Of a stretch of DNA of 64,000 nucleotides, positions 20,575 to 40,728 are shown in pieces (the stretch's first letter is position 1; each line of letters opens with the position of its first letter). The position numbers were made by a program, and so were the translations under genes. The DNA lies in assembly GCA_016185705.1 (NCBI GenBank), contig JACPMZ010000010.1, positions 913 to 64,912 of the forward strand, written 5' to 3'. The notes under the pieces were generated by a model that was given only the letters and a program-made list of their open reading frames with translations, had not been told where the DNA came from and did not search any database. The stretch comes from Candidatus Woesearchaeota archaeon (GTDB lineage Archaea; Nanobdellota; Nanobdellia; Woesearchaeales; UBA10216).

Positions 20575-20799
20575 GTTTGAGTTGCAAACTATGGAGGTGA
20601 TTTGCATGTGCGGAACTTGTGGCGATGGCGGAGGCGCTTAAGCGCTTCCAGCCCAATCTGCCTTATGCTTACAGATTCAATAAAAGCAGGACAGGAAAAG
20701 GTGGAAAGGAATGAAAAACGTATTGATTGTGGTTTTGGCAAAGGTACATTGAGGAGTATTACGAAGTTCCTTTTGATTAATGACATGGAGGCGATAAGA

Positions 20800-21039
20800 A
20801 TGGCAAAAGTAAAGGTTTACAGCACACCAACATGCCCTTGGTGCAAGAAGACAAAAGAGCTGCTGAATGAGAACAGCATCGGTTTTGAGGACATTAATGT
20901 TGCTGCGGACTCTAAAGCGGCGCAGGAGATGTTCAGGAAGTCCGGACAGATGGGCGTTCCGGTGACTGACATTGACGGTCAGATAATTGTCGGATTTGAC
21001 AAGCTAAAGTTGAAACAGCTGTTGAAAATCAGCGGATGA
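20800..21039 (+). CDS. Glutaredoxin/NrdH-like redoxin
   Basis: MAKVKVYSTPTCPWCKK. RBS GGAGG before ATG 20800. The ORF track extends from 20602. Confidence 0.75.
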   Translation: MAKVKVYSTPTCPWCKKTKELLNENSIGFEDINVAADSKAAQEMFRKSGQMGVPVTDIDGQIIVGFDKLKLKQLLKISG

Positions 21040-21070
21040 AGAAAAGAAATACTTGTTGCCAGTGGGTGTC

Positions 21071-21202
21071 ATGATGAAAGAGGTGGTGCGCTTGGCCTGT
21101 GAGGTTTGCATTGAGGGAGAGAAGGGCAGAATCTGCATTGACATCTGTAAATTCATGGAGACAGGCAGGATGGAGTGCAGGTTCAGGGAAAGGCTACTTT
21201 GA
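21071..21202 (+). CDS. Small Cys-rich protein (43 aa), hypothetical
   Basis: [43 protein letters not shown]. Weak RBS. Overlaps the copA 3' end. Confidence 0.25.
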
Positions 21203-23788: not shown

Positions 23789-23836
23789 TTGTTCAGTCTT
23801 CTGGCTGTATTTACGGCAATTTATATAAATATGCAG

Positions 23837-23929
23837 TTATTTGCTGAGTTTCAGCTTAACACCGCACATGCTGCACTTTCCTGGAGCTTTGTATTCCATT
23901 CCGCATTCAGAACATTTGTATTTTGTCAT
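23837..23929 (-). CDS. TRASH/zinc-ribbon-like mini metallochaperone (30 aa)
   Basis: MTKYKCSECGMEYKAPGKCSMCGVKLKLSK. Its CxxCGME motif is shared with the copA N-terminus. Ends 48 nt upstream of copA. Confidence 0.45.
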   Translation of the reverse strand: MTKYKCSECGMEYKAPGKCSMCGVKLKLSK

Positions 23930-23941
23930 TTTTCCTGCAAT

Positions 23942-23990
23942 TTGCTATTTAGCAAATCCCGCAAAAGTTCAAAAATTATCGGGATTTGCT
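23942..23990. promoter_or_regulatory. Palindromes in the putative cop promoter (TTGCTATTTAGCAA; gcaaatcccg/cgggatttgc; ATTTGCTATT x2)
   Basis: Dyad symmetry lying just upstream of the mini-TRASH start (its first codon is complement 23929..23927) and downstream of the ATP-cone gene. Confidence 0.35.
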
Positions 23991-24010
23991 ATTATAAAGT
24001 CCATCAACAG

Positions 24011-24307
24011 TCAGGACACATCCCTGTGCGTTTCGTACATGAATGAAGCGTTTCGGTCATGCTTTTTCAGATATCCGGTTATTTGCCTGTGGAGTTGATG
24101 CGAAGTTACAGCTTTCCTGTCATCAATCCATTTGCGCAAATCTTTGCAGACTTCTGCTGCCGCTTTTTCTGCGGTCAGCTCTGTTTGGTGTGCAGCCAGG
24201 CAGGCAGCATATACTGACGCATATGCCTTTCTTTCGTCAAATTTTTCTCTGTGGCCGTGGCGCTTCACTACATGAATTTCCTTTTTTGCTGTTTTTTTCT
24301 TTGCCAT
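24011..24307 (-). CDS. ATP-cone domain protein
   Basis: IHVVKRHGHREKFDERKAYASVYAAC fits the ATP-cone consensus (VVKRDGxxExFDxxKI). Confidence 0.5.
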   Translation of the reverse strand: MAKKKTAKKEIHVVKRHGHREKFDERKAYASVYAACLAAHQTELTAEKAAAEVCKDLRKWIDDRKAVTSHQLHRQITGYLKKHDRNASFMYETHRDVS

Positions 24308-24308
24308 T

Positions 24309-25019
24309 TTAGCCGAAGTTGATTGTTCCGTTTGCTATCAGCATGAGCAGGAAGCCCATGGAAATCAGCAGCAGGCCTACAATAAGCCGCATGAATCCGC
24401 GGTAGTCCTGTTTCCATTTTTTAACCTTGTAAAGTTTGGTTCCTGTGGCTACAAGCATTAGTATGACTATCAGGGGCGCTACAAATATTATGTTGTACAG
24501 TATAAGCAGCATGAAAGCAGTAAAGTCAAAATACTGCGATAAGAGGGTTATGATCGCAAGGTACGGCGCGCCTGTGCATGGAAGCTCAACCACAGACACA
24601 AATGCGCCAAGGAGAATTATTCCGGGCACGGTTGTTTTTGAAGCGTGCTGATGCATCCTTTTTGCAAAGACCGAAGGAATTTGCAAAGAAAACCATTTTC
24701 CATACCAAAAATAGTCTTTAATCTCAATCAGCCCGGCAATTATTATTATCAGCCCAACGGCTATTGACAGGTATTCTGTCAAGTACAGGGGTATGCTTGA
24801 AAAAAGATATACAAGCCCGAGGCCTGCTATCAGATAAACTGCAAACACAGCCAATATGTATAAGCTGCCCAGTGCAAGCATGCGCTTCATGGAGCTTTTT
24901 CCGGCAAGCAGAACAGAAATCATTAAGATTAAAACTCCTATTGCGCAAGGATTAATTGAGTCAATGACTGCTGTAATCACTACAGTTCCTAACGCGGGAA
25001 GATATGCTTCAACTGCCAC
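24309..25019 (-). CDS. ccdA: CcdA/DsbD-family membrane thiol-disulfide transporter, second copy
   Basis: NPCAIGVL and ELPCTGAPYL motifs in a polytopic membrane protein. Confidence 0.75.
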   Translation of the reverse strand: MAVEAYLPALGTVVITAVIDSINPCAIGVLILMISVLLAGKSSMKRMLALGSLYILAVFAVYLIAGLGLVYLFSSIPLYLTEYLSIAVGLIIIIAGLIEIKDYFWYGKWFSLQIPSVFAKRMHQHASKTTVPGIILLGAFVSVVELPCTGAPYLAIITLLSQYFDFTAFMLLILYNIIFVAPLIVILMLVATGTKLYKVKKWKQDYRGFMRLIVGLLLISMGFLLMLIANGTINFG

Positions 25020-25926
25020 TCAGTTCACCCCTTGCAGCAGCCAGCCGGTATGTTTCGCATATGTTTTCTGTAGAATCCTTTTCCTCACCAAATTCCACAA
25101 TTATGCAGTCTCCTGGAGGAACGTTTGGCTCCGGGGATAAAACATAATTTTCAAAATCATCCGGTTTTATCTGCTCGTAAACCCATTTTTTCCGCTGGTC
25201 AGGATTCTTGACCTTGTACAGGAATACCTGTAGTTTCCCCTGCTTTCCGTCGCACAAGTCGCCATTTGCCATCTCAACCAGCCCTTCATTTGTAGGAATT
25301 GACATGGAATCAGCATTAAGTTCAGCTCCGATAACATGGAAAAAATTGTGCAGGGCAACATCTCCATCATCAACAACAACGCCTTCCACGTGAATGCGGT
25401 TATCGCCGTGCTCATGGAAAGTGGAAGATCCTACTCTGTTCTCAAATCCGTGAGGGTCGGTCAAATCAAGCTTTTCTCCGCAATTGTATATTTCAAAATC
25501 CGCATGCCAATGGACCGGCCCTTTGGTCTGTGAAGCCAGGTTAAGATAGATGGTGGAGCCTGCTGTGTAAGCTGCTGCTGATACAGTAACAAGCACTATC
25601 AAAGAGAACAGAACCATCTTTATGGAGTTGCTGTTCTTCATAGTCTTAGTGCCGAAAGTGGCCATTAATATCAGAATCGCAATAACTGACAAGGCATATG
25701 CCACGACCTTTAGCGTGCTTAGCTTGACAGATTCCTCCAGTCCTGCAGATACAGACTCCTCAGCATGCTCTTCATCTGAGTGTTCATCTCCCTCCTGATG
25801 TTCGGAAACCGCTTCATCGCTGTGCGCTGATGCTGCGATTAATACCATCAGGAAAATAAGCGGAAAAAGCAGTATTTTTATGAAGCTGAAATGGTTCATT
25901 GCCGCAGCAGAATTTCCATACACCAC
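25009..25926 (-). CDS. Membrane-anchored protein with an acidic His-rich stretch plus the novel His/Cys extracytoplasmic domain
   Basis: SDEAVSEHQEGDEHSDEEHAEE, then VHWHADFEIY...FHEHGD...C...C. Overlaps ccdA2 by 11 nt. Confidence 0.65.
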   Translation of the reverse strand: MVYGNSAAAMNHFSFIKILLFPLIFLMVLIAASAHSDEAVSEHQEGDEHSDEEHAEESVSAGLEESVKLSTLKVVAYALSVIAILILMATFGTKTMKNSNSIKMVLFSLIVLVTVSAAAYTAGSTIYLNLASQTKGPVHWHADFEIYNCGEKLDLTDPHGFENRVGSSTFHEHGDNRIHVEGVVVDDGDVALHNFFHVIGAELNADSMSIPTNEGLVEMANGDLCDGKQGKLQVFLYKVKNPDQRKKWVYEQIKPDDFENYVLSPEPNVPPGDCIIVEFGEEKDSTENICETYRLAAARGELSGS

Positions 25927-26387
25927 TTTTGCACCCTGTAGCTGAATAACCGTGAATAACTAAAGGTAAGGGGACTTTATAAAAGTACCGATTTTAGGTA
26001 ATTTCAAGTTAAGTGGCAAAACCATCGCACACTGCTCTGATTTTTTTCTCCCCCCTTAAAAAATAAGGGGGGAGAAAAAAATCAGCCAAGCAGGCATCGG
26101 CAAGCTCAGGATTGCAGGACACACAACTTGACATTATCCGATTTTATGCAGCAGTAGTGGTTTATAGAAGTAGTGCCGGCATTTGCAGTGGTGTTTGCAG
26201 CATTCTATGCTGTATCTTGGAGTGCCTGGCGTTTGCTGCCTGACCAATCCTTTAAAGCTGGATGCTGAGTTATAGGAAATAACCTTGATTTTCGTATGTT
26301 TTGAAATGATTGTAAGGTTATTTCCTAATAAGCAAATCACTTATTCGTTAGGAACAAAATTCCGATTATTAAAGTGATTTGCTATAA

Positions 26388-27143
26388 TCATCGGTCATGC
26401 TTTCCGAATTTTTCTATTTTTCTTTTCGCTGACTTAAGGTGCCTGCCGGTCTTTTGGGCTGCAACTGCGTACTTGTCAGCTTCCCTCTCCTCTTTTTCCA
26501 GAGATTCAGAAGCGCTTATGAACATTGACAAAGGCGTGAACATCCTGAGCAGGTTTGCCGAAAATTTCCAGAAGTAAGCCCTGCTTCTGTGATGGCTCAG
26601 CTCGTGCAGCAGCACTGCCTCAACCTCCTTTTTAGAAAGAGCTTCCGAAAGCCCTGCGGACACGAATATGGCGGGCTTCAGGTTTGTTATGGAATACGCC
26701 ACAGGCATTGCCTCATTCAGCGAATAAACTTTGGGCTCCTTTATCTTAAGCTCTTTAGACTTCTCCGCAACCAGCTGCTTCATAAAGCCAGCATCCACAA
26801 CTTTGCTCCTGCTTGACCAGTTGTACAGGAACGGCAGAGCAGCAAAGCCCAGAGCTGCTGCTGCCAGGCCTGCAAGGGGCGTGAAAAGCATGAACATCTT
26901 TGGGCTGCAGCTCATGACAGGCATCAGGCACTTCCATGTGAATGCTGAAAACACAAACGGAAAAATCAGAAAAATTACATGCGCTGCAAGAAAGTTTATC
27001 TTAAGCCGTATGCTTTCCGAATTTTTGAAAAGAGCATAAAACAGCCCGGAAGCGAGCAGGGAAAAAGCGAGCGCGTAAAAGCTGATTGGGTTGTGAATGA
27101 GGTTGTTGAAGTACACGTTCCACATAAGCAGCTGCTCAATCAT
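26388..27143 (-). CDS. BlaR1/M56-family membrane metalloprotease sensor
   Basis: Four TM segments and an HELSHH zinc motif. Downstream of the BlaI-like gene with a 4-nt overlap. Confidence 0.65.
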   Translation of the reverse strand: MIEQLLMWNVYFNNLIHNPISFYALAFSLLASGLFYALFKNSESIRLKINFLAAHVIFLIFPFVFSAFTWKCLMPVMSCSPKMFMLFTPLAGLAAAALGFAALPFLYNWSSRSKVVDAGFMKQLVAEKSKELKIKEPKVYSLNEAMPVAYSITNLKPAIFVSAGLSEALSKKEVEAVLLHELSHHRSRAYFWKFSANLLRMFTPLSMFISASESLEKEEREADKYAVAAQKTGRHLKSAKRKIEKFGKHDR

Positions 27144-27502
27144 TTTTTTGCCCTGCCTTCCAGCGCTTCGTTAAAGTACACTATTGCTTTGGAGCCGAAC
27201 TTGTCAACCAAGGAATCAACCACTTTCTCCACAGCGTTTCTTTCAAACATTTCCCTGTCCTTCTCCAGCGCGTACACAAACCGGATTCCTCCTCTGGCAG
27301 TTTCAACTTCCCTTTTGACAAGCCCTTTCCTGAACAGCCTGTCCATAATCACCGAAACGCTGCTCTTGGAAGCTCGCCCCCTGACTATCATGTATATGTC
27401 CTTTGCCCGATACTTTTTGCCGGGCTTCAGAGCCATTATTATTCGGCTTTCCAGCGGGCTTAAAGAATCAGCCACTTCAGCCACGCCTTTCATAAGCCGC
27501 AT
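27140..27502 (-). CDS. BlaI/MecI/CopY-family transcriptional repressor
   Basis: 120-aa wHTH penicillinase-repressor family. Confidence 0.65.
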   Translation of the reverse strand: MRLMKGVAEVADSLSPLESRIIMALKPGKKYRAKDIYMIVRGRASKSSVSVIMDRLFRKGLVKREVETARGGIRFVYALEKDREMFERNAVEKVVDSLVDKFGSKAIVYFNEALEGRAKK

Positions 27503-27523
27503 GTGCCATTCGGGTATAAATAC

Positions 27524-27541
27524 TTTTCGCTACAAATTCTT
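27524..27541. promoter_or_regulatory. Candidate BlaI/CopY-type operator GCTACAAATTCTTGTAGC (TACA-N6-TGTA)
   Basis: Perfect 7-bp inverted repeat in the divergent promoter between blaI-like and 27589. Flanked by TATA-like GGTATAAATAC and GTTTAAATAC. Confidence 0.45.
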
Positions 27542-27588
27542 GTAGCTATTGGAAAAGTTTAAATACAGGAACGAAAACACAGTTTTTA

Positions 27589-28806
27589 ATGATTGGACTT
27601 GGCGAAGAAAAGAAGGAAAACATGCTCTCAACTTCTGTAAAAATCCTGAAGCAGAAGGAAAGCAGAAAGGCCCTTCTGGTTAGTGCAGCTGTTTTTCTGA
27701 TACTTTACAGCTTTGTGTATGGCTTTTGGAAAATACCGGTGATAGATTTCGGAATCAACAGGCTTTCCCAAATAGGATTTCCCGATTACCTGTTTGCCAT
27801 TGCTGTTGCCGCACTTTCCTCAGTTTTTGTGTCGCTGTTCCTGTACGAGAGAAGAAGCAGGCTTGCTTCAGCATCGTCCATCGGCGGAATGGGCGGGGGC
27901 TTTGCCGGATTTGTTGGCGCAGTGTGCCCTGTATGCCAAAGCATAGGAGTGGTTGCTTTTGGAAGCACCCTGCTTAACATTCCCACAGCTTTTTTAACTC
28001 CTTACCTTGGCTTCCTGAAATTTGCCGCCATCGGACTGCTTGGACTGTCTGTTTACCTGAAGGCGGACAGCATCCACACTAAAAAGTGCCGCGCGTGCAA
28101 AGTGAAAATCACCGGCAGTTCACACAAAAAAGAGCCATTCCTGCTGAGAAACAGGTTTGCTTTCGGAGCAATAGTGGCGCTGGTGCTGCTTGCAGGACTG
28201 AACAACATGCTCATACCAAAGGCATTCGCAGCATCGCCATCCGGCAGCTGGCAGACGGCAAGCCTCGGAGCGTTTGAATACGGACCGAAAACAACGCTGA
28301 AGCCCATGCCCCTCGCACATGAAGAGCAGCCCGCAATACCCGGCTACAGGTCAAAGGTCAAGCCGCTGCCAACTATAAGCGAGCTGCAAATGAAGCCTTT
28401 AACAGGCGATGCTGCGCAGGACGTGCTCAACAACATAGTCCCCGTAGGAACGCCGTGGTACGGGCTGCAGGCAGGAGTGAGCTTTGACGACCCCATCGCA
28501 GCCCAAAACCTGTGGGCAAAAGGCAGAGCAATACAGCTAAGCCCTGAAGAGGAGCAGCGCTGGAACAGGATTGCGAACTCATTTACATGCGATTACTGCT
28601 GCGGCAGCCCACAAAACCCGACCATCATAACCAGATGCGGCTGCGCACACTCGTCAGCCGCTCAGGGCATGGCAAGATGGTTTATCAAAAACTACGGCGG
28701 CAGCTATTCCGACGAGGAAATATACGGGGAAATGGCAAGATGGTATGCCCTCTGGTATCCAGGCCCCACAATCAAGAGGATACTGCAGGAAGCGCAGGCA
28801 ACATGA
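27589..28806 (+). CDS. Membrane protein: N-terminal CxxC-in-TM module (GAVCPVCQ, CRACKV) fused to a C-terminal Cys-cluster domain (CDYCCG...CGCAH)
   Basis: The N-terminal 170 aa are paralogous to 13435..13863. Confidence 0.6.
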   Translation: MIGLGEEKKENMLSTSVKILKQKESRKALLVSAAVFLILYSFVYGFWKIPVIDFGINRLSQIGFPDYLFAIAVAALSSVFVSLFLYERRSRLASASSIGGMGGGFAGFVGAVCPVCQSIGVVAFGSTLLNIPTAFLTPYLGFLKFAAIGLLGLSVYLKADSIHTKKCRACKVKITGSSHKKEPFLLRNRFAFGAIVALVLLAGLNNMLIPKAFAASPSGSWQTASLGAFEYGPKTTLKPMPLAHEEQPAIPGYRSKVKPLPTISELQMKPLTGDAAQDVLNNIVPVGTPWYGLQAGVSFDDPIAAQNLWAKGRAIQLSPEEEQRWNRIANSFTCDYCCGSPQNPTIITRCGCAHSSAAQGMARWFIKNYGGSYSDEEIYGEMARWYALWYPGPTIKRILQEAQAT

Positions 28807-28816
28807 GGTGAAAAAA

Positions 28817-29020
28817 ATGGAACGAAAAGAGATTTTGCTGATGGTGCTCATCGGCTTTTTAGTGCTGACAACATCAGTCCAGGCAGTGCAGCTGGTAACG
28901 CTGGGCAGCAGCTCAGTTACGTCTGCAGCCGGAAGCAGCGCTGCTCCCCAGGCAGTTTCTGGAGCAGTTGCAGCGCCTTCAAGCCTTGACAACCTGCCAT
29001 CAATGGTAGGCGGCTGCTGA
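28817..29020 (+). CDS. Small secreted/membrane protein (67 aa) with a C-terminal Cys
   Basis: RBS GAGGTGA. MERKEILLMVLIGFLVLTTSVQA signal/TM segment. Confidence 0.4.
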   Translation: MERKEILLMVLIGFLVLTTSVQAVQLVTLGSSSVTSAAGSSAAPQAVSGAVAAPSSLDNLPSMVGGC

Positions 29021-29035
29021 CGCTGGTGGTTTTGC

Positions 29036-30160
29036 TTGAAACAATCCAACAAAACAGAATCAGCACTGTACGCAGCGCTTGCACTGGCCGCGGCAATATC
29101 GCTCCTGAATGTTTTTATCCTGCAAATCCGTGCAGAGCAGGTCAGCGAAGCAAAGGAAGCTGCGGAAGAGCTGGCAAGGCCGGCAGACATAGAAGCGACT
29201 AAAATACTGCTTTCCGGCTGCGAGGAATGCTTTGACATTCAAAATGCCTTGGAAGAGCTTAAGAAGCAAAACGTCAACCTGCTGACTGAAAAAAGCCTTT
29301 TCATTGAAGATGAAGAAGCTAAAGAGCTCATACGCCGCTACGGGATTGAAAAAATCCCTGCGTTGGTAATCTCAGGCGAGGTAAACAAGACAAGCCAGCT
29401 AGCCGCCTATTTTGAAAAAACAGGCGTTATCTCAGGCGACGGAACAGCAGTGTACACGAACATAAAACCGCCATACTACAACACAACTGCCAAAAAAGTG
29501 GTTGGAAAAGTAAGCGTTCTGAACATCGTTGACTCCCAATGCGAAACATGCGCGTCATTAAGCCAGGTAAAAGAATCGCTGAAACAGGCAGGGGTTGTCA
29601 TAACAGAAGAAAAGACTTATGAGTATTCCTCGCCGGAAGGGCAGGAGCTTATTGACAGGTTCAACGTGAGCAGAGCGCCTGCGCTTCTGATATCAGCAGA
29701 AGTCAACCATTACGCCGGAGTGGGAAGCCAGTTGCAGCAGCTGGCAGAAGAGAAAAGCGGCTTTTACGCCCTTCACTCCACCTCTCCGCCTTACAGAGAT
29801 CTGCAGCAGGACAGAATCGTTGGAGAGGTAACGCTAATCCTGCTGAAAGACGGTTCCTGCGCAGAATGCTACGATGTGAAAATCAACAAGCAGATATTAC
29901 AAGGGTTTGGAGTTGCGATAACAGAAGAGGAGACCTATGACGTTTCGTCAGAAGAAGGGCAGGCTTTAATCGCAAAATACGGCATAGAAAAAGCGCCTGT
30001 AATACTCATGTCGCCGGACGCTGCGCATTATCCGGCGCTTGCGCAGGCATGGAAAAGCGTCGGCACAGTGGAAAGTGACGGGTGGCATGTTATGAGAAAG
30101 CCGGAAACTCTGGGAACTTACAAGGAGCTGGAAAGCGGAAAAGCAGTGCAGGCAGGTTAG
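29036..30160 (+). CDS. Membrane-anchored protein with three tandem thioredoxin-fold repeats (CEEC, CETC, CAEC; cis-Pro IPA/APA)
   Basis: Internal ~100-aa triplication. TTG start with GGTGG RBS. Confidence 0.65.
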   Translation: MKQSNKTESALYAALALAAAISLLNVFILQIRAEQVSEAKEAAEELARPADIEATKILLSGCEECFDIQNALEELKKQNVNLLTEKSLFIEDEEAKELIRRYGIEKIPALVISGEVNKTSQLAAYFEKTGVISGDGTAVYTNIKPPYYNTTAKKVVGKVSVLNIVDSQCETCASLSQVKESLKQAGVVITEEKTYEYSSPEGQELIDRFNVSRAPALLISAEVNHYAGVGSQLQQLAEEKSGFYALHSTSPPYRDLQQDRIVGEVTLILLKDGSCAECYDVKINKQILQGFGVAITEEETYDVSSEEGQALIAKYGIEKAPVILMSPDAAHYPALAQAWKSVGTVESDGWHVMRKPETLGTYKELESGKAVQAG

Positions 30161-30215
30161 AAAAATTGAGCCAGACCATAGCTTAGGCAGGAATGCCCGC
30201 CACCCTTTGATTTAA

Positions 30216-30710
30216 TTGTTTCATATTGATGGAAAAATGAATGAAAGCGACAAAAAGAAATCCGCAGTTGTAGCAGCGTTTGCGCTGTTCCTTGCAGCCG
30301 GCATTGCCTACATTGCGTTCACAAACGAGGAAACGCAGCCGGATTACGAAACTCCTCCGCCTGAAAAAGTGGTTGAGCAGTATTTCACTGCATGGAACGA
30401 CAAAAACTATCCTGACATGTATGCAGCCATATCAGACGGCTTCAAGAAGATAGAGCCTACCGCGAATGATTTAAGGGCGTTTAAAAGCTATGCCGAATCC
30501 CAGAAAATAAGCAATGCCAGAGTGCTGTCAGTGAATGAAGTTTCAAACGACGGCAAAACAGCTGCCGTCAGCTACTCTGTTGAATTTCTGCTTGCAGGCG
30601 GAACAAAAAGCAGATTTGACGGGACTTTTACATTGAAATACAGGGAAGGGGATGTAATTCCGGGATGGAAGCTGATACACCCTTACGGCGAAAACATAGA
30701 CGCTTCATGA
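30216..30710 (+). CDS. Membrane-anchored hypothetical protein (NTF2-like?)
   Basis: 164 aa. ATGATGA coupling to the next gene. Confidence 0.45.
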   Translation: MFHIDGKMNESDKKKSAVVAAFALFLAAGIAYIAFTNEETQPDYETPPPEKVVEQYFTAWNDKNYPDMYAAISDGFKKIEPTANDLRAFKSYAESQKISNARVLSVNEVSNDGKTAAVSYSVEFLLAGGTKSRFDGTFTLKYREGDVIPGWKLIHPYGENIDAS

Positions 30711-31477
30711 TGACTCCAAACATTCGCAATGCACGGCAGAAGAATAAACCGAAAACTGGTAACGCTGAAAAAATCGTGACATCATTTATCGTATTGGCTG
30801 TGCTCGCAGCTGCACTCTCATTTTTTTACGTTTCAAAATCGCTGTTTTTTCCAGGCGAAGGGGGCGGAGGTCAGCAGCAGACAAGCCATTTCTCATCCGC
30901 GGGCTTTACCGCTTTTGACGTTGAACTCGCCAAAAAGCTCATGGACAAAGACAGCGACGGCAAATGCGACAGCTGCGGGATGGACTTGGAATTCTGCATA
31001 CAAAGCGGGCAGCTGCAGTGCAGCATGGACCCGAAATCAACCATTGGCGTTTTGGACACCACAAAGGAAAAGCACCACTACCACGCAGATTTCAAAGTGT
31101 ACATTAGCGGCGAAGAAATTGACTTCAGCCAGCAGAAGTATTTTGTCAAAAGCAGGTTCATCCATGTTGAGAACGACGTTCAGGGCGATTCAGGAAAGGT
31201 TCTGCACATGCACGCCTCCGGAGTCCCCTTGTGGGTGTTCTTTGAAAGCGTTGGGATGAAATTCAACGAAAGCTGCTTTGTCACGGACGGCAGGGAAGCG
31301 CACTGCAACAACAATGGCAGAACATTAAGCTTTTACACAAACGGAAAACAAAATCCCGAATACGAAAGCTACGTTTTTCAGGATGGCGACAGGATTCTGA
31401 TAAGCTATGGAAGCGAAAATGGGGAAGAAATAAAAAAGCAGCTTAGTTCAATAACAGATTTTGCAAAAAACCATTAG
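30707..31477 (+). CDS. Membrane-anchored protein with a TRASH-like CDSCGMD motif plus the novel His/Cys extracytoplasmic domain
   Basis: HHYHADFKVYISGEE...HMHASG...C...C...DGDRILISYG. Paralog of 13860-C-terminus, 25009 and 32240. Confidence 0.65.
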   Translation: MMTPNIRNARQKNKPKTGNAEKIVTSFIVLAVLAAALSFFYVSKSLFFPGEGGGGQQQTSHFSSAGFTAFDVELAKKLMDKDSDGKCDSCGMDLEFCIQSGQLQCSMDPKSTIGVLDTTKEKHHYHADFKVYISGEEIDFSQQKYFVKSRFIHVENDVQGDSGKVLHMHASGVPLWVFFESVGMKFNESCFVTDGREAHCNNNGRTLSFYTNGKQNPEYESYVFQDGDRILISYGSENGEEIKKQLSSITDFAKNH

Positions 31478-31943
31478 TAAAATGATTAATGCGAAAAAGC
31501 TTGTAACAGAAAAGGCAGCCGCGCTCTCAACCTCCCTGTCAGGAGCGCTGAGCTTCATGGGCGGCTACCAGGTGTGCCACAACATCTGCCTTGGAATAAT
31601 AGCCCTTCTGTCAATAGCAGGCATAACGCTGGTTGGCATGCCCCTCCTGTTCCTTACCAGGGTAGCAGTACCGCTTTGGACAGCCGCTTTTGCGCTGTTC
31701 CTCATAACCCTGGCCATTAGCTTCATAAAGAAGTGCATTCCTAAAAAGATTATTGTATTGAACGCCGGAATCCTGATTGCAGGAGTCCCGTTTGCCCCTG
31801 TACAGCCCTACGCCCCGCTCTTATGGATAACAGGCGGAAGCATGGCAGCTTTAAGCATTCTTTTTTACATCCGGGCAAAGGTTAACAAAAGCCGCGCAGG
31901 TAAGCGGAAGGGGAAAACATTCAGCAGCAGCATTGGCACTTGA
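31461..31943 (+). CDS. Small polytopic membrane protein with CxxxC in a TM helix (QVCHNICLG)
   Basis: 160 aa. Overlaps the upstream gene by 17 nt. Confidence 0.55.
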   Translation: MQKTISKMINAKKLVTEKAAALSTSLSGALSFMGGYQVCHNICLGIIALLSIAGITLVGMPLLFLTRVAVPLWTAAFALFLITLAISFIKKCIPKKIIVLNAGILIAGVPFAPVQPYAPLLWITGGSMAALSILFYIRAKVNKSRAGKRKGKTFSSSIGT

Positions 31944-32098
31944 GCTTGAAGGCAACTCATTAAATAAAGTGCGCCGCACCAGCCAATTTCCGCCTTGCAG
32001 CGCTTAACAGGCGGCTTCAGCTTTATGCACTCCAAAAAGCAGAGTGCCATTAAAAACATAAAGTATTTAACCATCACCTTTTGCCGTAACAGGCAGCA

Positions 32099-32200
32099 AT
32101 GGTCGCCTGCACGGACTGCGGTAAGGAATTTGATTCCAGAATGAGCATGGAGCAGCACTATGCTGCGAAGCATGCAAAGCAGAAGCCTGTTTCCCCATAA
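32099..32200 (+). CDS. C2H2 zinc-finger mini-protein (33 aa), possibly the N-terminus of the downstream ORF
   Basis: MVACTDCGKEFDSRMSMEQHYAAKHAKQKPVSP. TATA-like AAAGTATTTAA about 27 nt upstream. In frame with 32240..32692 across a single TAA. Confidence 0.5.
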   Translation: MVACTDCGKEFDSRMSMEQHYAAKHAKQKPVSP

Positions 32201-32239
32201 TCTAAGAAGTCAAAAAAGAAGCCGATTATTGCAGCGCTT

Positions 32240-32692
32240 TTGCTGATAATTGTTTTGGGTTCAGGATATTTCATGTTTTTTAACAGTTCAGGGGAAAAGC
32301 CTGTTATTGAGCAAGCTGATGTTGCAGATGTTAATCTTGATGAAGTTCCAAAAGGCCCTATTCACTGGCATCCTGAGCTTACTGTCATTATTAAGGGAGA
32401 GGTTCAGAACATTCCAAGAAATCTGGGTCTTGGAAGTGTGCACAAGCCGGTTCACACGCATGATGACGTTCCAGTGCTTCACTATGAGAACAGCAGGCCG
32501 ACTGCTGAAACTGTCACGCTTGGCTACTTTTTCAGCGATGTGTGGAGAAAAACTTTTAACAGCCAATGCATTTTCAGTTACTGCAGCGGAGCAGAAGGCA
32601 ATCTGTCAATGACGGTTAATGGCAAGCCCAATTTTCAGTTTGATAATTACATCCCGAAAGACGGCGATAAGATAGTGATTATGTTTGGATAG
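32240..32692 (+). CDS. Novel His/Cys extracytoplasmic domain protein (fourth paralog)
   Basis: IHWHPELTVIIKGE...VHTHDD...C..C...DGDKIVIMFG. No canonical start upstream of its TM anchor except by reading through the TAA at 32198. Confidence 0.6.
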   Translation: MLIIVLGSGYFMFFNSSGEKPVIEQADVADVNLDEVPKGPIHWHPELTVIIKGEVQNIPRNLGLGSVHKPVHTHDDVPVLHYENSRPTAETVTLGYFFSDVWRKTFNSQCIFSYCSGAEGNLSMTVNGKPNFQFDNYIPKDGDKIVIMFG

Positions 32693-32777
32693 GCTGTGCT
32701 GATAAGCTTCCCCAACGTGTTGTTAAGTTTTCGGCTGTTACCAAATACTTTAAGCAAACGATAATGCGCAGTAGTAG

Positions 32778-32815
32778 CAGATGCAGCTCAAAGCCAAAAC
32801 ACTGCCGCCCGCAGA
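32778..32815. repeat. 35-bp direct repeat GCTCAAAGCCAAAACACTGCCGCCCGCAGATT, copy 1 (70 bp upstream of the dsbA-like gene)
   Basis: Second copy at 34360..34396 with one mismatch. Confidence 0.8.
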
Positions 32816-32883
32816 TTTAACAGAACGCATTTACGGAAAACTTTTTAAAGAAAAAGCGCATCGCGCACAAAGGGTGATAACTG

Positions 32884-33663
32884 ATGATAGAGCACGACAA
32901 GATGCACCACAAGGCTAAGGGTGAAACTGAAAGTATTGTAAAGATTAAGAGCGAGGAGGAAGAGACTTTCAAAATTAAGAAAACAACGTTGTGGCAGGGA
33001 CTCTCAGCAGTTTTGGGGGTGCTTCTTGCGGTATCCATTTTTACAGGCGGTTTTGGTTATGGCAATGGCTCTGAAGGCAGCGTCGCTGTCAGGGAGCCTG
33101 TTGCAGCTCAGCCAAGCGCTCCATCTCCCACTCCGACTGTTGATGTCCAGATTGGCGATGCCCCTGCTCTTGGTGACGAGAACGCTCCTGTGACATTGAT
33201 TGAATTTTCAGACTTCCAGTGCCCGTTTTGCGGCAGGCACTTTTCGCAGACTCATTCGCAGATAAAACAGCAGTACATTGACACTGGAAAAGTAAGGTTT
33301 GTTTACAAGCATTTCCCGCTTGATAGCATTCACCCGCAGGCAACGCCTGCAGCTCTTGCCTCTGAATGCGCCCGCGAGCAGGGCAAGTTCTGGGAATACC
33401 ATGACCTGATTTTCCAGAACCAGCAGTCTCTTGGAGATGCAAGCTACAAGCAGTGGGCATCCCAGCTCAGCCTTGACACAAACAAGTTTAACGGCTGCTA
33501 TGACAGCCAGAAATACATTGAGCGTGTAAGGAGCGACCTTCAGCAGGGCACTGATGCAGGCGTTCGCGGCACTCCGGGCTTCCTGCTGAATGGCGTAGCC
33601 ATAAGCGGCGCTCAGCCGTTTGATGTGTTCCAGCAGGCAATTGAGGCAGCGCTTTCGGGCTGA
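32884..33663 (+). CDS. DsbA-family thiol-disulfide oxidoreductase (CPFC)
   Basis: TM anchor, FSDFQCPFCGRHF, and a cis-Pro GTPGF. Confidence 0.8.
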   Translation: MIEHDKMHHKAKGETESIVKIKSEEEETFKIKKTTLWQGLSAVLGVLLAVSIFTGGFGYGNGSEGSVAVREPVAAQPSAPSPTPTVDVQIGDAPALGDENAPVTLIEFSDFQCPFCGRHFSQTHSQIKQQYIDTGKVRFVYKHFPLDSIHPQATPAALASECAREQGKFWEYHDLIFQNQQSLGDASYKQWASQLSLDTNKFNGCYDSQKYIERVRSDLQQGTDAGVRGTPGFLLNGVAISGAQPFDVFQQAIEAALSG

Positions 33664-33792
33664 TTGGGTGTATGGCAACAGTTTTTCCTGTTGCCCGGCT
33701 CATTTTTTATTCTTTCTCCGTGGAGAGAACAGAAAGTGGGCAGCGCAGTAACTGGCTTACGTTACCGTTTATCAGATTCAGAGTCGTTCAAA

Positions 33793-34323
33793 ATGGTGGG
33801 CAGCGCTGATTTCAGGCTTCGTTGGAACTTCATTAAAGGAGTGTTTGCCAGCCGGGCTTATGCGCTGCTTTTTGCTGTTTTGCTGGCTGCTTACCTTGGC
33901 GTCAACTTCTGGCTTAACAGGTTTTATGAAACTTTGCCAAATCTTCTCAGCTTCCGGCTTTCAGTGGTTGTGCCTTATTTGGCAGGGACATTTCTCGTAG
34001 GGCTGCTTGTTGCCCTTAACCTTACCTTGATAATTTACAAGCTGAGGCAGGTCATGATGCTGGGGAAAGAGGTTGGCGTAACCGCAGCCGGAGCTTTTGG
34101 GGGAGTGCTTGGAGGAGCCTGCCCTGGCTGCTTTGTCGGCGTTTTTCCTGCTGTGGCAGGGCTGTTTGGCGTTACTGCAACGCTGAGCTCTCTTCCTTTT
34201 CTTGGTTTTGAGATTCTGATTCCAGCGCTGCTGATAGCTCTGGTTGCGCTTTACCTTGTTGCAAAGCCGCTTACCTGTCAGCCGGAAACCTCAGAGAAAA
34301 ATGAACAGCACAGAAAGAATTGA
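33793..34323 (+). CDS. Small membrane protein with CPGC in a TM helix (GACPGCFVGVFPAVAG)
   Basis: Paralog of the CxxC-TM family. ATG at 33793. The ORF track extends to 33664, but a terminator-like hairpin plus T-tract lies at 33681..33716. Confidence 0.6.
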   Translation: MVGSADFRLRWNFIKGVFASRAYALLFAVLLAAYLGVNFWLNRFYETLPNLLSFRLSVVVPYLAGTFLVGLLVALNLTLIIYKLRQVMMLGKEVGVTAAGAFGGVLGGACPGCFVGVFPAVAGLFGVTATLSSLPFLGFEILIPALLIALVALYLVAKPLTCQPETSEKNEQHRKN

Positions 34324-34359
34324 GATAAGAAAAGCTCATGTGTACGTTGCGCTGCTACT

Positions 34360-34396
34360 GCTCAAAGCCAAAACACTGCCGCCCGCAGATTGAACA
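34360..34396. repeat. 35-bp direct repeat, copy 2 (just downstream of the CPGC membrane gene and upstream of the cupredoxin gene)
   Basis: Matches 32778..32812. Confidence 0.8.
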
Positions 34397-34410
34397 ATAA
34401 GCTACAATAG

Positions 34411-34553
34411 GCCTTATTGAAACGTTCACGCAGCCTCACTCTGTTGCTGGCTTCCCTTCCTGCTTTTTCCCTCCCTTAAATATTCAGGGGAGGGAAAAAG
34501 CAGGAAGAACGGCGGGATAAACGCAGCGGTAAAGTGAACTTTTCAATAGCACC
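34411..34553. repeat. Copy A of a ~142-bp intergenic element containing the GGGAGGG-core hairpin (34456..34507)
   Basis: About 96% identical to 61032..61173. Confidence 0.85.
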
Positions 34554-34609
34554 CTCCAACAGAAAGAAATAAATAAGAGTTGGAACCTTTGCCAGTGAAA
34601 GAGGTTAAA

Positions 34610-35083
34610 ATGCGGATACACTTTTACATTTTAGGGTTGTTGGCTGTTCTGCTTGCTGGCTGCAGTCCTGCACCTCCGGAAGTTGGCGGTGAAGGCGCTG
34701 AAGCAGCGCAGGTTCCTGCAGGTCTTGGTGATGATGCTGTAGAGGAGACTGTAGTTGTAGAAACGCCTGAAGAGGCTCCTGAAATCATTGCTCCTGATGC
34801 TCAGCCGCAGGCAAAACAGTTCACAATGACTGCAAGGCAGTGGGAGTTTGACCCTGAAGTGATAAGGGTTAACAAGGGCGACACTGTAAGGTTATTGGTA
34901 AAAAGCATTGACGTTGCTCACGGCTTTGCGCTGCCTGATTTTGGTGTTAACGAGCGCCTTAGCCCAGGGCAGACTGTTGAGGTTGAATTTGTTGCTGACA
35001 AAGCAGGAACCTTTACCTTCTTTTGCTCTGTTCAGTGCGGCGCCGGGCACAGCAGCATGAACGGGCAGCTCATAGTTGAATGA
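34610..35083 (+). CDS. CuA-type cupredoxin lipoprotein (COX II-like copper centre)
   Basis: Lipobox LLAGCS. H...FFCSVQCGAGHSSM CuA ligand motif. Confidence 0.7.
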   Translation: MRIHFYILGLLAVLLAGCSPAPPEVGGEGAEAAQVPAGLGDDAVEETVVVETPEEAPEIIAPDAQPQAKQFTMTARQWEFDPEVIRVNKGDTVRLLVKSIDVAHGFALPDFGVNERLSPGQTVEVEFVADKAGTFTFFCSVQCGAGHSSMNGQLIVE

Positions 35084-35526
35084 TGGCACCTATTGAACGC
35101 TACAAAAGTTACGCTCCGGCGCTTGTAAGAATAGCAGTCAGCCTTGTCTTCCTGTGGTTTGGGGTAAACCAGCTTGTTAATCCGGAGTCGTTTCTTGGCT
35201 ATGTTCCAAACTGGCTGCATCCTCACGCTGCCGAAATGCAGCACGCCCATCCGTTGCAGCTCCTGCACAACATTTCAGGGCTGGCTCATTGGCTGATAAT
35301 GGGCAATGGAATTTTTGAGACAACATTCGGGCTTCTTTTGCTTCTGGGCTTTTTCACACGGCTCAGCGCACTGCTGTTAAGCATCCATCTGGTTGCAATA
35401 GCGGCAGGCCTTGGCTACAATGACATAGCAGTGAGAGACTTGGGATTGGCTGCTGCGGCATTTTCGGTTTTTCTAAACGGCCCTGACACGCTTTGCATTG
35501 GCAAAAGGCTAAAGAAAGCATCTTAA
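35080..35526 (+). CDS. DoxX-family membrane protein
   Basis: 148 aa, four TM segments. ATGA overlap with the cupredoxin gene. Confidence 0.6.
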   Translation: MMAPIERYKSYAPALVRIAVSLVFLWFGVNQLVNPESFLGYVPNWLHPHAAEMQHAHPLQLLHNISGLAHWLIMGNGIFETTFGLLLLLGFFTRLSALLLSIHLVAIAAGLGYNDIAVRDLGLAAAAFSVFLNGPDTLCIGKRLKKAS

Positions 35527-36999: not shown

Positions 37000-38124
37000 T
37001 CAGATTAAATGCTTTACCAGCACGTTCTGCGTTATTGAGCGCTGCGCGTAGTAGTCAAGCTCTACATTGAATGTTTTGACGCTGTCTATTTTGCTGTTTT
37101 CGTCAAGCGTCTGGATGCACGTGAAGGTCGCTTTGCCGTCTATCAATAATAGTTCGCCGCTTATGGGGCTGTTTCCTGTTAGTCCTACGCAGTTTAGTCC
37201 TGATGTTTGTGCTAATAATTCAATTCTTGCATTTCTGAGTCTGTCCCGTCTTGATTGGAGTGTATCATATGATGCCTCAAGGCCGACTAAAAATTTAGCA
37301 TCCTCTAATTCCTTTTCAGCTGCAGTGGCATCTATTCCAGCAAGCTTAATTCCTGTATCAACCAGTACATTAATTCTGTCTTTATTCCTGAAGTCTGTGC
37401 TGCATTTTTCTCCTTTGCTGTCTGCTGTTGGCTTGAAAACCTCATCAGGCCCTACTTTGGTTATTTCAAAGTTGAATATTATTTTGTCTGCCCCGCCTAC
37501 GCTTTGGGATACTTTGGTTATGTGCACCGGCGCGCCTGAGTTGCTGACTGCTCTTTCTCCTGACGGATTGCACACTTCGTTTACAGCGTCAGTGAAGTCT
37601 TCCTGCAGGCACATCTGGGATGCTGCGGCTGTTTTGTATCTGTAGCATGCCTCTGCTTTGAATGGGAACTGCTGGTTTCCTTTGAGCGTTTCCCTGTACA
37701 GGAACCTGTCAGAATCTGCCGGCCATCGATCCGCAACAGGAAATGTGAATGGCTGCAAATCCCCTCTTATCAGATTGCCGCTTGGGTCCCGCTGAACTCC
37801 AAGAAGCTGCTGGTTGTTGCTTTGCTTGAGCTGCTTATTTCTGTCTTCAACTGAAAAATCGTTGGGGAAGAATCCTGTCATTTCCATTTCCAGCTCGCCT
37901 GCAGGTATTGTGTGCTCGCCGACGTTTGACACTGTTACAACCGCCAGAAAAGGAAATCCTCGGCCGTCTCCGAAATCAGTCACTTCCAGCGGCGGAGTGT
38001 TTGGAAGGTAAGCTAATCTTAGCCCTTCTTTGCCTCCTGTGAATTCGCTGGTTGTGCTTTCTCCGCCGGGAAGGCATGCTGAAGCGGCAATAACCAAAAA
38101 CAGAATTCCGTAAATGGCTTTCAT
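37000..38124 (-). CDS. Secreted lipoprotein, paralog A of a three-member family
   Basis: Signal plus lipobox AASAC. Conserved EACYRYKTAAASQMCLQED...CNPSGERAVSNSGAPVHITKV. Confidence 0.6.
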   Translation of the reverse strand: MKAIYGILFLVIAASACLPGGESTTSEFTGGKEGLRLAYLPNTPPLEVTDFGDGRGFPFLAVVTVSNVGEHTIPAGELEMEMTGFFPNDFSVEDRNKQLKQSNNQQLLGVQRDPSGNLIRGDLQPFTFPVADRWPADSDRFLYRETLKGNQQFPFKAEACYRYKTAAASQMCLQEDFTDAVNEVCNPSGERAVSNSGAPVHITKVSQSVGGADKIIFNFEITKVGPDEVFKPTADSKGEKCSTDFRNKDRINVLVDTGIKLAGIDATAAEKELEDAKFLVGLEASYDTLQSRRDRLRNARIELLAQTSGLNCVGLTGNSPISGELLLIDGKATFTCIQTLDENSKIDSVKTFNVELDYYAQRSITQNVLVKHLI

Positions 38125-38159: not shown

Positions 38160-39155
38160 CTACTGGATGTCTTCAACAAGAACGTTTGTCTCTATTGTTT
38201 CCCTGACGTCGTATTCAAGTGCTGCAGTGAAGGTTTTTATGCTGTCAACGAATGACACTCCTTCAAGGTTTTGTATGCATGAGAAGGTTGCTGCGCCGTT
38301 GTTCAGTATCAGTTCGCCTGAGCCCTTATCGGCTCCTACATTTGTAAGCCCCAGGCAGTTTATGGAATCAGGGTTTCCGAGATTTGTTGTTACAGTCACT
38401 TTAACCCTGTTTTCGGAGAGCTGGTCGCTCTTTTGGCATTTTGGCCTTTGAGTCGGGTCTCTGGTATAGAATATGTCTGCTGTTCCCGCTTTTTTGACTT
38501 CAAAGTCAAGCACTACTGAGTTTGTTCCTGCCACGTCCTGCCTTACAGCTGTTATGTGAACCGGCGCTCCGGAGTTGCTGACCTGCCTGTTTCCTATCGG
38601 ATTGCAGATTTCAGTGTCGCTGCTTCTGAGGTCTTCCTTCAGGCAGATTTGCGAAACGGTTTTTGTTTCGTACTTGTAGCATGCTTCTGCTGTAAACGTG
38701 TAGGTTTGGTCTACGCTCAAATCCTGTCTATAGGCAAATTCGCCTGTTTTCGGAAAGGTTATCTGCTCAAGCGTGCCTCTTCTTACATCGCCCTGATTGT
38801 TTTTTGAAACAGCAGTAAGTGTTTGTGTGTTGGACTGGGTGAGTTCTTCGGTGGCAGCAACGCCGAAATCTTCAGGGAAGAATCCTTTCAGGCTTAATTT
38901 CAGGCCTCCTGGATTAATGGTGTATTCTCCAACGTTTTCAACGCTTACAATTGCGTTGAATTTAAACTGGTCTTCTTGGGTTGGGCCTGCATCAAAGGCT
39001 TTTGCCGGCGGGTTGTTGTCAAGAAACTTCAGTGTTACGCCGTCGTTTCCGCCAACAAAACCGAATGTGGAGGGTGTCTGCCCTTCGCCGGGCGAGCATG
39101 CAGAGATTATAGTTACAACAGCCAGCAGAATAACAGTTGCTATTACGCTTCTCAT
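38160..39155 (-). CDS. Secreted lipoprotein, paralog B
   Basis: Lipobox ISAC. EACYKYETKTVSQICLKED...CNPIGNRQVSNSGAPVHITAV. Confidence 0.6.
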   Translation of the reverse strand: MRSVIATVILLAVVTIISACSPGEGQTPSTFGFVGGNDGVTLKFLDNNPPAKAFDAGPTQEDQFKFNAIVSVENVGEYTINPGGLKLSLKGFFPEDFGVAATEELTQSNTQTLTAVSKNNQGDVRRGTLEQITFPKTGEFAYRQDLSVDQTYTFTAEACYKYETKTVSQICLKEDLRSSDTEICNPIGNRQVSNSGAPVHITAVRQDVAGTNSVVLDFEVKKAGTADIFYTRDPTQRPKCQKSDQLSENRVKVTVTTNLGNPDSINCLGLTNVGADKGSGELILNNGAATFSCIQNLEGVSFVDSIKTFTAALEYDVRETIETNVLVEDIQ

Positions 39156-39345: not shown

Positions 39346-40728
39346 ATGGTTAGGTATGCCTCTCTTGCTTTGACGGTTTTTGTGATTCTTGCTGTGCTGT
39401 ACAGCTTTGATTCCCTGAGCCAAACTTCGGTAACTGGTTATGCTTCCGGCGATGTTTGCCCTGAGGCGCGTAATGACGGCTGGAAGTGGAGGTGTGGTGG
39501 TGTCCGCTACCAGACTTATGATTCATGCGTCGCCGGCTGTGGTGCTCAGGGTTCAGCGCAGCAGCAATCTTCTGCTGGCTCTGCCGCTGGCAGCGATGCT
39601 CAGCAGGATACAACTGTCATTCCCGGCTCTCCAGCTGCCGGCTCTCAGCTCGCAGGCATCCGCCTTGAACCGGTTATTCAGGTGCTGGACGCCACTCCGA
39701 AAAGGGACAGGTATGTTGTTGGCGACAGTGTTATGCTGAATGTTTACGTTAAGAACTCTGGCACCAAAAGCACGCACGAATACCCTGAAGGGTATCGTTA
39801 CATTGTGAAGCTTTACAGCGGCAATTCTCTTTTGGAGGAGAAAACATTTTTCTTTGGAGGTTTGCCGCGTTATCTTGCTGATGAAAACGCACAGGTTACA
39901 ACTATTTCCAAAGGCAGCAATGTAAACGCTTTCGACACTGTGTGGGTTGCGGACAAGCAGACTCTGAAAGCTGAAGTTATTATAATAAAGCAGGATAATG
40001 ACAATGACGTTTCGGTAGCCACGTTTAAGGCTGAAAAAGGCCTGGAAGTGCTTTCCGAGGAAGAATATGGGGATTTCCTTGCCGCTAATGTTCCCGACAT
40101 ACAGCTGGTTGAGGTCAAGCTTCTGCCTGCTCCGACGAGCATTCCTTCAACTGTCACCAACTTTGCATACCGGATTAAGAATGAGGGCAGTGCTGATGCA
40201 GTGTTCTCAGATAAGTTTTTTGAGGCAAGCATCAAGCTGCTCAAGGGCGGCAGCACAATCTGCCAGGTGTCAGAAGACAGGCGCTTGTTTACGCTGAAGC
40301 CTGGTGAATCTAAGGGCTTCAGCACTTCCCTCGCAGCCGGCAGCTGCGTCATTGACAGCAGGTCTGCTTCGTACAGTTTCGTGGTTGAGCTGGACAGGAA
40401 CAATGTTTATGGAAAGAAAACCGTTGCTCAGTCAGCTGCCGATGCTGTTGTTGCATGCTCTCCGCTGGGGGGCAGGGGAACAGATGCTTACTGCGACCTT
40501 GATGGTTTCTACAAGAGCTACAAGGGCGGGGACGCTGCCTGCAGCCACAATTTTGAGTGTGAGGAAAACTTTTGCTACAACAGCAAATGCATTGAAAAAG
40601 GCATAATACAGGACAACAGGGCCTGCACTTTCAGCTTGCAGTGCGCATCTGATTTGTGCATAAAGGGCGTATGCGTTGGCGGCGAAAGGAAGGAAAGCAT
40701 CCACGCCTTGGTGCCTGTATTTGAATAG
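39346..40728 (+). CDS. Secreted Cys-rich protein with a C-terminal EGF-like Cys module
   Basis: Signal anchor. The C-terminus has six or more Cys in C-x-C patterns. Confidence 0.5.
   Translation: MVRYASLALTVFVILAVLYSFDSLSQTSVTGYASGDVCPEARNDGWKWRCGGVRYQTYDSCVAGCGAQGSAQQQSSAGSAAGSDAQQDTTVIPGSPAAGSQLAGIRLEPVIQVLDATPKRDRYVVGDSVMLNVYVKNSGTKSTHEYPEGYRYIVKLYSGNSLLEEKTFFFGGLPRYLADENAQVTTISKGSNVNAFDTVWVADKQTLKAEVIIIKQDNDNDVSVATFKAEKGLEVLSEEEYGDFLAANVPDIQLVEVKLLPAPTSIPSTVTNFAYRIKNEGSADAVFSDKFFEASIKLLKGGSTICQVSEDRRLFTLKPGESKGFSTSLAAGSCVIDSRSASYSFVVELDRNNVYGKKTVAQSAADAVVACSPLGGRGTDAYCDLDGFYKSYKGGDAACSHNFECEENFCYNSKCIEKGIIQDNRACTFSLQCASDLCIKGVCVGGERKESIHALVPVFE

Follow-up and report, generated by a model that had tools for sequence, protein, structure and literature searches.

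In a 64,000-nucleotide stretch of DNA from a Candidatus Woesearchaeota archaeon (contig JACPMZ010000010.1, positions 913 to 64,912; hereafter the window), a 33-residue open reading frame (ORF) with a C2H2 zinc-finger motif is followed, in the same frame and across a single TAA, by an ORF for a membrane-anchored domain. The question raised by this locus (32099..32692) is whether it consists of two genes, of one gene with a stop codon that is read through, or of one gene that is interrupted. The locus is very probably one gene, the intact product of which is a membrane protein of 197 residues, and in which the Tyr34 codon (TAC) is changed to TAA. This change is private to the metagenome-assembled genome (MAG) from which the window is taken, and represents an allele or an error, not recoding.

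The finger ORF begins with ATG at 32099, consists of 33 codons (MVACTDCGKEFDSRMSMEQHYAAKHAKQKPVSP) and is closed by TAA at 32198-32200. Past the TAA the frame is kept (SKKSKKKPIIAALLLIIVLGSGYFMFF...) and runs through a Lys-rich stretch, a transmembrane (TM) helix and a His-rich domain until TAG at 32690-32692. The features of the gene are as follows.

32060..32070, plus strand: AT-rich, TATA-like box AAAGTATTTAA, in which TATTTA begins 35 nt 5' of ATG 32099
32099..32197, plus strand: C2H2 finger and start of the linker (codons 1-33), with C4, C7, F11, M17, H20 and H25
32198..32200, plus strand: in-frame TAA, with A at base 32200, where contig L014 of a Logan assembly has C (TAC, Tyr34)
32201..32221, plus strand: Lys-rich juxtamembrane stretch SKKSKKK, a positive-inside signal as read from the sequence
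32222..32281, plus strand: single TM helix PIIAALLLIIVLGSGYFMFF, which holds the candidate starts ATT 32225, TTG 32240 and ATG 32273 and is followed by NSSGEK...
32282..32344, plus strand: acidic, disordered, predicted extracytoplasmic stalk NSSGEKPVIEQADVADVNLDE of variable length in the alignment; predicted local distance difference test score (pLDDT) of 54-56 in the window model
32345..32692, plus strand: predicted extracytoplasmic His-rich β-grasp-like domain, pLDDT 94-99; the range takes in TAG 32690-32692

In the numbering of the fused reading, the ectodomain contains HWH at 89-91, HTH at 119-121, H128, E130 and the pair C157/C162 (CIFSYC). The KKxxxK of the juxtamembrane stretch is kept in the family consensus. 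The layout, re-read from the sequence, is that given in an earlier note on this DNA, in which a 33-residue C2H2 ORF was placed in frame with a TM-anchored ORF across one TAA. That note also claimed that the downstream ORF lacks a credible start, and this is borne out, because neither ATG nor GTG is present in frame between the TAA and the hydrophobic segment and because TTG 32240 lies in the helix without a Shine-Dalgarno (SD)-like motif. The first canonical starts after the TAA are this TTG, inside the helix, and ATG 32273, at the helix end. Only the 139-residue piece that starts from ATG 32273 is annotated in GenBank, as 'hypothetical protein' MBI2664665.1 (HYX10_04995) of a Candidatus Woesearchaeota MAG. 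A slippery heptamer of the dnaX type, A AAA AAG, is present in phase at 32212..32218 (codons TCA AAA AAG), and the same Lys codons are found in the orthologues. This heptamer was considered as a relevant element and is probably incidental, because both halves of the gene share one frame and slippage cannot bypass a stop in the same frame.

When the fused reading was used as the query of a homologue search, 81 proteins were returned, of which 79 were aligned. The finger, linker, TM helix and domain are encoded as one ORF of ~200 residues in 53 of these 79 homologues, which come from MAGs of Woesearchaeota and other DPANN archaea. Alignments of the fused reading with such single-ORF homologues extend over the full length, with a coverage of 98-100% and E values down to 6e-84. 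The finger ligands C4, C7 and H20 are invariant over 54 sequences and H25 is nearly invariant; in the domain, H89, H91, H119, T120, H121, H128 and E130 are invariant. The window copy retains every invariant residue on both sides of the stop, and the stop falls in the linker, the most variable part of the alignment. Because the fused reading aligns end to end with proteins encoded by single ORFs, the juxtaposition of the two ORFs is not a matter of chance: judged from this alignment, the finger ORF and the membrane-anchored ORF are two halves of one ordinary gene, not chance neighbours. The earlier note had raised the possibility that both ORFs belong together and had proposed an orthologue comparison; the 53 single-ORF homologues agree with this view, and the close relatives encode one protein, not two separate proteins.

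One orthologue in another assembly is also split (L011, 1305..1938, from ENA ERZ25069191 ctg585142_6x_l). It has a frameshift after the TM helix in a long-read assembly of 6x depth, and this split is probably an indel or assembly error unrelated to the TAA of the window.

The origin of the TAA is revealed by a nearly identical sequence. The 90% identity cluster of the GenBank fragment holds a second member, P0184, which has 197 residues and is encoded on four contigs of run-level (Logan) assemblies. P0184 is exactly the fused protein of the window with Tyr at the position of the stop (...KQKPVSPYSKKSKKK...). Its locus in an independent run-level assembly, L014 (SRR12113430), differs from window 29599..32815 at only 2 of 3,217 bases, 30396 and 32200; around the gene itself, there is 1 difference in 741 aligned bases. 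Base 32200 is A in the window (TAA) and C in L014 (TAC, Tyr). Base 30396, which lies in the gene for an NTF2-like protein (30216..30710), is A in the window (Asn) and C in L014 (His), and is the sole other difference in the ~4.8 kb compared with run-level assemblies. Contigs L015 and L016, from sibling runs, are 100% identical to window 32786..34389. Because a matching, near-identical contig has TAC at 32200, the stop is, as far as these assemblies tell, a single-base C-to-A difference found only in this MAG, and the same population also contains the intact allele.

Neither the 139-residue product, nor a 150-residue product, nor the 33-residue peptide is on record from assemblies other than the GenBank MAG. 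Exact-pattern scans of GTDB representative genomes and JGI metagenomes, with NNN at the codon, gave no strain variants, and neither P0001 nor the NTF2-like allele of the window gave a record in exact look-ups; the intact allele came to light only in the 90% identity cluster of P0001. An origin of the TAA by a 3-nt indel was examined against orthologue P0011, and was made unnecessary by the exact TAC/TAA comparison. The locus resembles ordinary nonsense alleles, pseudogenes and consensus errors of MAGs in that a one-base premature stop interrupts an otherwise intact, conserved ORF, the intact allele of which is present in the same population. The sole distinction is the position of the stop within a disordered linker, so that the two domains are neatly parted, and it is for this reason that the split looked designed.

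The earlier note had offered readthrough, mutation and error as options. The TAC in the otherwise identical L014 favours mutation or error. Readthrough is not favoured, since no orthologue has the stop and TAA is a normal terminator in this genome. Programmed readthrough or local recoding of the TAA would allow some ribosomes to make a full-length sensor from the TAA-bearing mRNA, and would account for a frame that is preserved over the stop and for a downstream ORF without a start of its own. However, a sense codon occupies the site in all 53 finger-bearing homologues, as TAC does in L014. TAA closes 21 of the 55 long ORFs in the window, being the joint commonest terminator, so that the codon is not reassigned. 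The RNA fold downstream of the stop is unremarkable (z = -1.87), with 10 of 200 shuffled sequences folding as well. The window contains no tRNA gene, and hence no suppressor is seen, a result that says nothing about the genome outside the window. A U follows the stop, giving the context UAAU, which is the strongest termination context in E. coli but may not be so in archaea. Literature on this family or on UAA readthrough in archaea was not found. The probability of readthrough is practically negligible; on the sequence comparisons, we reject the TAA as a programmed recoding signal.

The stop of this single interrupted gene is either a private nonsense allele present in some members of the population or an error in the consensus of the MAG, and we lean slightly towards a real allele, probably one of loss of function. 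This lean is built on assumed rates of error and polymorphism, not on reads, and is not a result. At the second variable site, 30396, two orthologues have Ser; the Asn of the window is one step from Ser, whereas the His of L014 is two steps from it. The window more probably carries the ancestral state at this site, which suggests that two genuine haplotypes exist, rather than one sequence plus errors. Three points weigh against a real allele and for the somewhat less favoured consensus error: four run assemblies have the intact allele and none has the stop allele, both differences between the window and L014 are C-to-A in the MAG, and stops arise from errors more often than from surviving polymorphisms. 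When other in-frame split genes were looked for by a codon-usage heuristic, only ordinary adjacent genes were flagged and this locus was missed, the finger ORF being short, so that the frequency of interruptions cannot be derived from it.

How a TAA-bearing transcript would be expressed depends on the signals for initiation. A TATA-like hexamer is present at -42..-18 of the start codon in 18 of 52 window genes, compared with 2.8% of random positions, and mostly begins at -28 to -32. Examples of the TTTATA/TTTAAA type are found upstream of 2014..3435 (minus strand), 4212..5288 (minus strand), 37000..38124 (minus strand), 38160..39155 (minus strand) and 39346..40728 (plus strand). SD-like motifs precede 10 of the 52 genes, mainly operon-internal ones. 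These two frequencies imply that most mRNAs of this genome are leaderless or nearly so. The finger ATG 32099 has its TATA-like box at the usual distance, and this box and the next 20 nt are conserved in the orthologous locus L003 of Woesearchaeota RIFCSPHIGHO2_02_FULL_45_15. The box at 32060..32070 is the likely promoter from which a transcript with no leader, or almost none, would start at the finger ORF. Neither an SD-like motif nor a TATA-like box is found upstream of ATT 32225, TTG 32240 or ATG 32273. If the allele is real, the 33-residue finger peptide would be made from the TAA transcript, with little or no membrane protein, since the sequence ahead of the TM helix offers neither a promoter nor an SD-like motif, and no ATG or GTG in frame. 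The other three copies of the domain in the window, which are paralogous, could compensate for the loss of this protein.

The 8-mer TAACAGGC occurs 11 times in the window, compared with 1.84 copies expected. Four copies lie near the gene, at 31828, 32005 and 32087 on the plus strand and at 32299 on the minus strand, and L003 (3975..4000) retains the copy that lies 5 nt upstream of the finger ATG. As an operator this 8-mer was rejected, because its frequency is not significant after its post-hoc choice among all 8-mers and about one such local cluster is expected per 64 kb.

The lack of initiation signals bears also on functional fission of the gene, in which a free 33-residue zinc-finger micro-protein and a finger-less exported domain would be made separately, the latter by termination-reinitiation at TTG 32240 or at the near-cognate ATT 32225. 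Members without a finger and with very short N-termini nest inside finger-bearing clades (P0055, MWGIIGIV...; P0054, MIKIAVAF...; P0059, MKIRNW...), and the finger is missing from most of the wider family. Because most homologues consist of the TM helix and the domain only, the ectodomain does not need the finger. Such natural versions, which occur in other lineages, have proper ATG starts: locus L007 starts with MKRKTIYL..., locus L008 with MSKWKMWGII..., and locus L010 at an ATGA overlap with a DsbB gene. The downstream ORF of the window is also fully intact, but this intactness is uninformative, because the ORF is one base away from the identical, uninterrupted sequence. In the window, the candidate starts have no SD-like motif or promoter, no usable start is located ahead of the TM helix, and a product initiated at TTG 32240 would retain only 13 hydrophobic residues without a basic flank. 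Moreover, the intact allele is the one found in four run assemblies. Fission is therefore very unlikely.

The intact product of the gene is predicted to be a single-pass membrane protein of 197 residues with its N-terminus inside and its C-terminus outside, consisting of a C2H2 finger, a Lys-rich linker, the TM helix, a stalk and an ectodomain of ~115 residues. The earlier proposal of a protein that spans the membrane, with the C2H2 finger in the cytoplasm and a metal-binding domain outside it, is supported to this extent; the outside domain is His-rich and probably binds metal. This topology is suggested by the Lys-rich flank before the helix, the acidic stalk after it, the conserved Cys pair in the outside domain and the helix modelled by AlphaFold2. 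Models were built for P0002, the closest full-length orthologue, and for the window's own 163-residue segment, in which the same TM helix (residues 9-26) and domain as in P0002 are predicted. The features of the P0002 model are as follows.

Residues 1-25: ββα finger (strands 2-3 and 10-11, helix 14-24), pLDDT ~91
Residues 29-38: disordered linker, containing the site of the window stop, pLDDT <50
Residues 40-60: TM helix, pLDDT 68-71
Residues 62-79: disordered stalk, pLDDT <50
From ~residue 90: domain, pLDDT 92-98

The finger has the spacing C4-x2-C7-x12-H20-x4-H25 with a hydrophobic core of F/L, and conforms to the pattern C-x2-4-C...H-x3-5-H. Its matches to the curated Pfam profiles zf-C2H2 and zf-C2H2_4 are below threshold (16.4 bits compared with a cutoff of 25.2). 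Over 54 family members, zf-C2H2 is matched by 34, zf-C2H2_6 by 20 (best 3e-8) and the double-stranded RNA (dsRNA)-binding JAZ type by 17, and a search of the PDB with the family profile gives C2H2 fingers at E 4e-5. The finger thus resembles the classical C2H2 clan (zf-C2H2, zf-C2H2_4, zf-C2H2_6, zf-C2H2_jaz and zf-met) in the C-x2-C-x12-H-x4-H spacing, the hydrophobic core and the predicted ββα fold. It differs in that one finger stands alone at the very N-terminus of a membrane protein from a prokaryote, whereas classical fingers form tandem arrays in soluble factors. The protein also resembles ZAS (zf-HC2) anti-sigma factors, in which an N-terminal zinc module in the cytoplasm is followed by one TM helix and a domain outside, and a weak NCBIfam match to an anti-sigma factor is detected far below threshold (E 0.011). 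However, the H-x3-C-x2-C motif of these factors is absent here, and archaea have no sigma factors.

The ectodomain matches no Pfam or NCBIfam family and has no PDB relative by sequence. It has ~1,290 homologues in DPANN archaea and bacteria of the candidate phyla radiation, most of which consist of the TM helix and the domain without the finger. When the ectodomain model was compared with the PDB by Foldseek, the best matches were the β-domain of transcobalamin, the DUF4430 protein 3u7z and ThiS/MoaD/Urm1, all of them weak (E at least 4e-3), with a probability of up to 0.98 and a target-normalised TM-score of up to 0.58. These matches are β-grasp proteins (the transcobalamin/haptocorrin β-domain; 3u7z, a 'putative metal binding protein'; ThiS/MoaD/Urm1), and the C-terminal ...VNG...DGDxIxI motif of the ectodomain resembles the tails of ThiS and MoaD. 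The ectodomain differs from them in that it has no sequence similarity to these proteins and that only the present family has the three HxH/HxE strand motifs and the Cys pair. The gene had earlier been counted as the fourth copy of a novel domain, and four copies are indeed present in the window.

13860..14729, minus strand: copy 1, fused to a thioredoxin-like domain with CxxC (WCVPC)
25009..25926, minus strand: copy 2
30665..31477, plus strand: copy 3
32201..32692, plus strand: copy 4, the gene studied here

All four paralogues contain the strand motifs HWH, HTH and HxE, in which His and Glu are exchanged from one position to another, which is the pattern expected of a shared metal site.

The gene is located in a contiguous copper and thiol-redox island at window 20602..35526, which encodes, besides a Cys-rich membrane protein of 405 residues, the following proteins.

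From 20602: glutaredoxin
21194..23788: CopA-type P-type ATPase with YHS and 2 HMA domains
From 24309: CcdA/DsbD_TM protein
26388..27502: BlaR1-like M56 peptidase with a BlaI/CopY-type repressor
From 29036: thioredoxin-like protein
30216..30710: NTF2-like anchored protein
From 32884: DsbA
34580..35083: cupredoxin with a CuA motif (CSVQCGAGHSSM)
From 35080: DoxX

In three orthologues (P0011, P0013 and P0014; locus L012, 45..959), a C-terminal CuA-type cupredoxin is fused to the finger-TM-domain protein. Because the cupredoxin is fused in these orthologues and encoded by a separate gene here, a functional link between the two is indicated. Orthologous loci adjoin genes for DsbB, DsbA and MauE.

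Whether the intact protein is a regulator is doubtful. As a membrane-tethered one-component regulator of the ToxR/CadC kind, the protein would sense metal by its ectodomain and bind DNA at the membrane by its finger and basic stretch. The topology fits this possibility, with a domain of nucleic-acid-binding type inside, a single TM helix and a His-rich domain outside; in addition, the finger helix positions +2 (E), +3 (S) and +6 (Q) are conserved, a promoter-proximal element at 32076..32098, between the TATA box and the ATG, is conserved between the window and L003, and the gene lies within the copper and redox island. However, neither a winged helix (Trans_reg_C) nor any other helix-turn-helix domain is matched in Pfam or NCBIfam by the window protein and 54 orthologues. 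The cytoplasmic part consists of one finger, separated from the membrane by ~15 residues, and specific DNA binding is rarely achieved by a lone classical finger. Furthermore, 17 of the 54 members have a match to the dsRNA-binding JAZ type as well, the finger is repeatedly lost and is absent from most of the family, and a separate BlaI/CopY-type repressor is encoded nearby. The analogy covers topology only: ToxR and CadC share with the present family the single-pass topology with the N-terminus inside, a small cytoplasmic domain of nucleic-acid-binding type and an extracytoplasmic domain, but they have an OmpR-type winged helix, whereas the present protein, from a DPANN archaeon, has a single C2H2 finger with a linker of ~15 residues and an unrelated β-grasp-like ectodomain. 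Regulation of this kind is unlikely. It is distinctly unlikely that the protein is a DPANN one-component metal sensor in which copper or another metal, once bound at the outside His/Glu site, would signal to a nucleic-acid-binding finger at the membrane, and of which the TAA allele would be a segregating natural knock-out.

A membrane-anchored, extracytoplasmic role in binding copper or another metal, tied to thiol-disulfide chemistry, is favoured for the intact protein, because of its copper and redox neighbours, the fusions to cupredoxin and thioredoxin-like domains and the shared His/Glu motifs. The ectodomain would bind a transition metal, most likely copper, and would work with the surrounding genes for copper export and thiol-disulfide exchange, while the finger would be an accessory cytoplasmic module. 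Repeated loss of the finger, and its absence from most of the family, are more easily reconciled with an accessory module than with a sensor's output domain.

The finding is primarily corrective. No recoding event has to be assumed; the stop is an ordinary single-base lesion or an artefact, the locus is to be treated as one interrupted gene, and MBI2664665.1 (139 residues) is a fragment of a 197-residue protein. The family to which this protein belongs is a reasonable candidate for a so far uncharacterised domain that handles metal outside the cytoplasm, in organisms whose genomes are very small.
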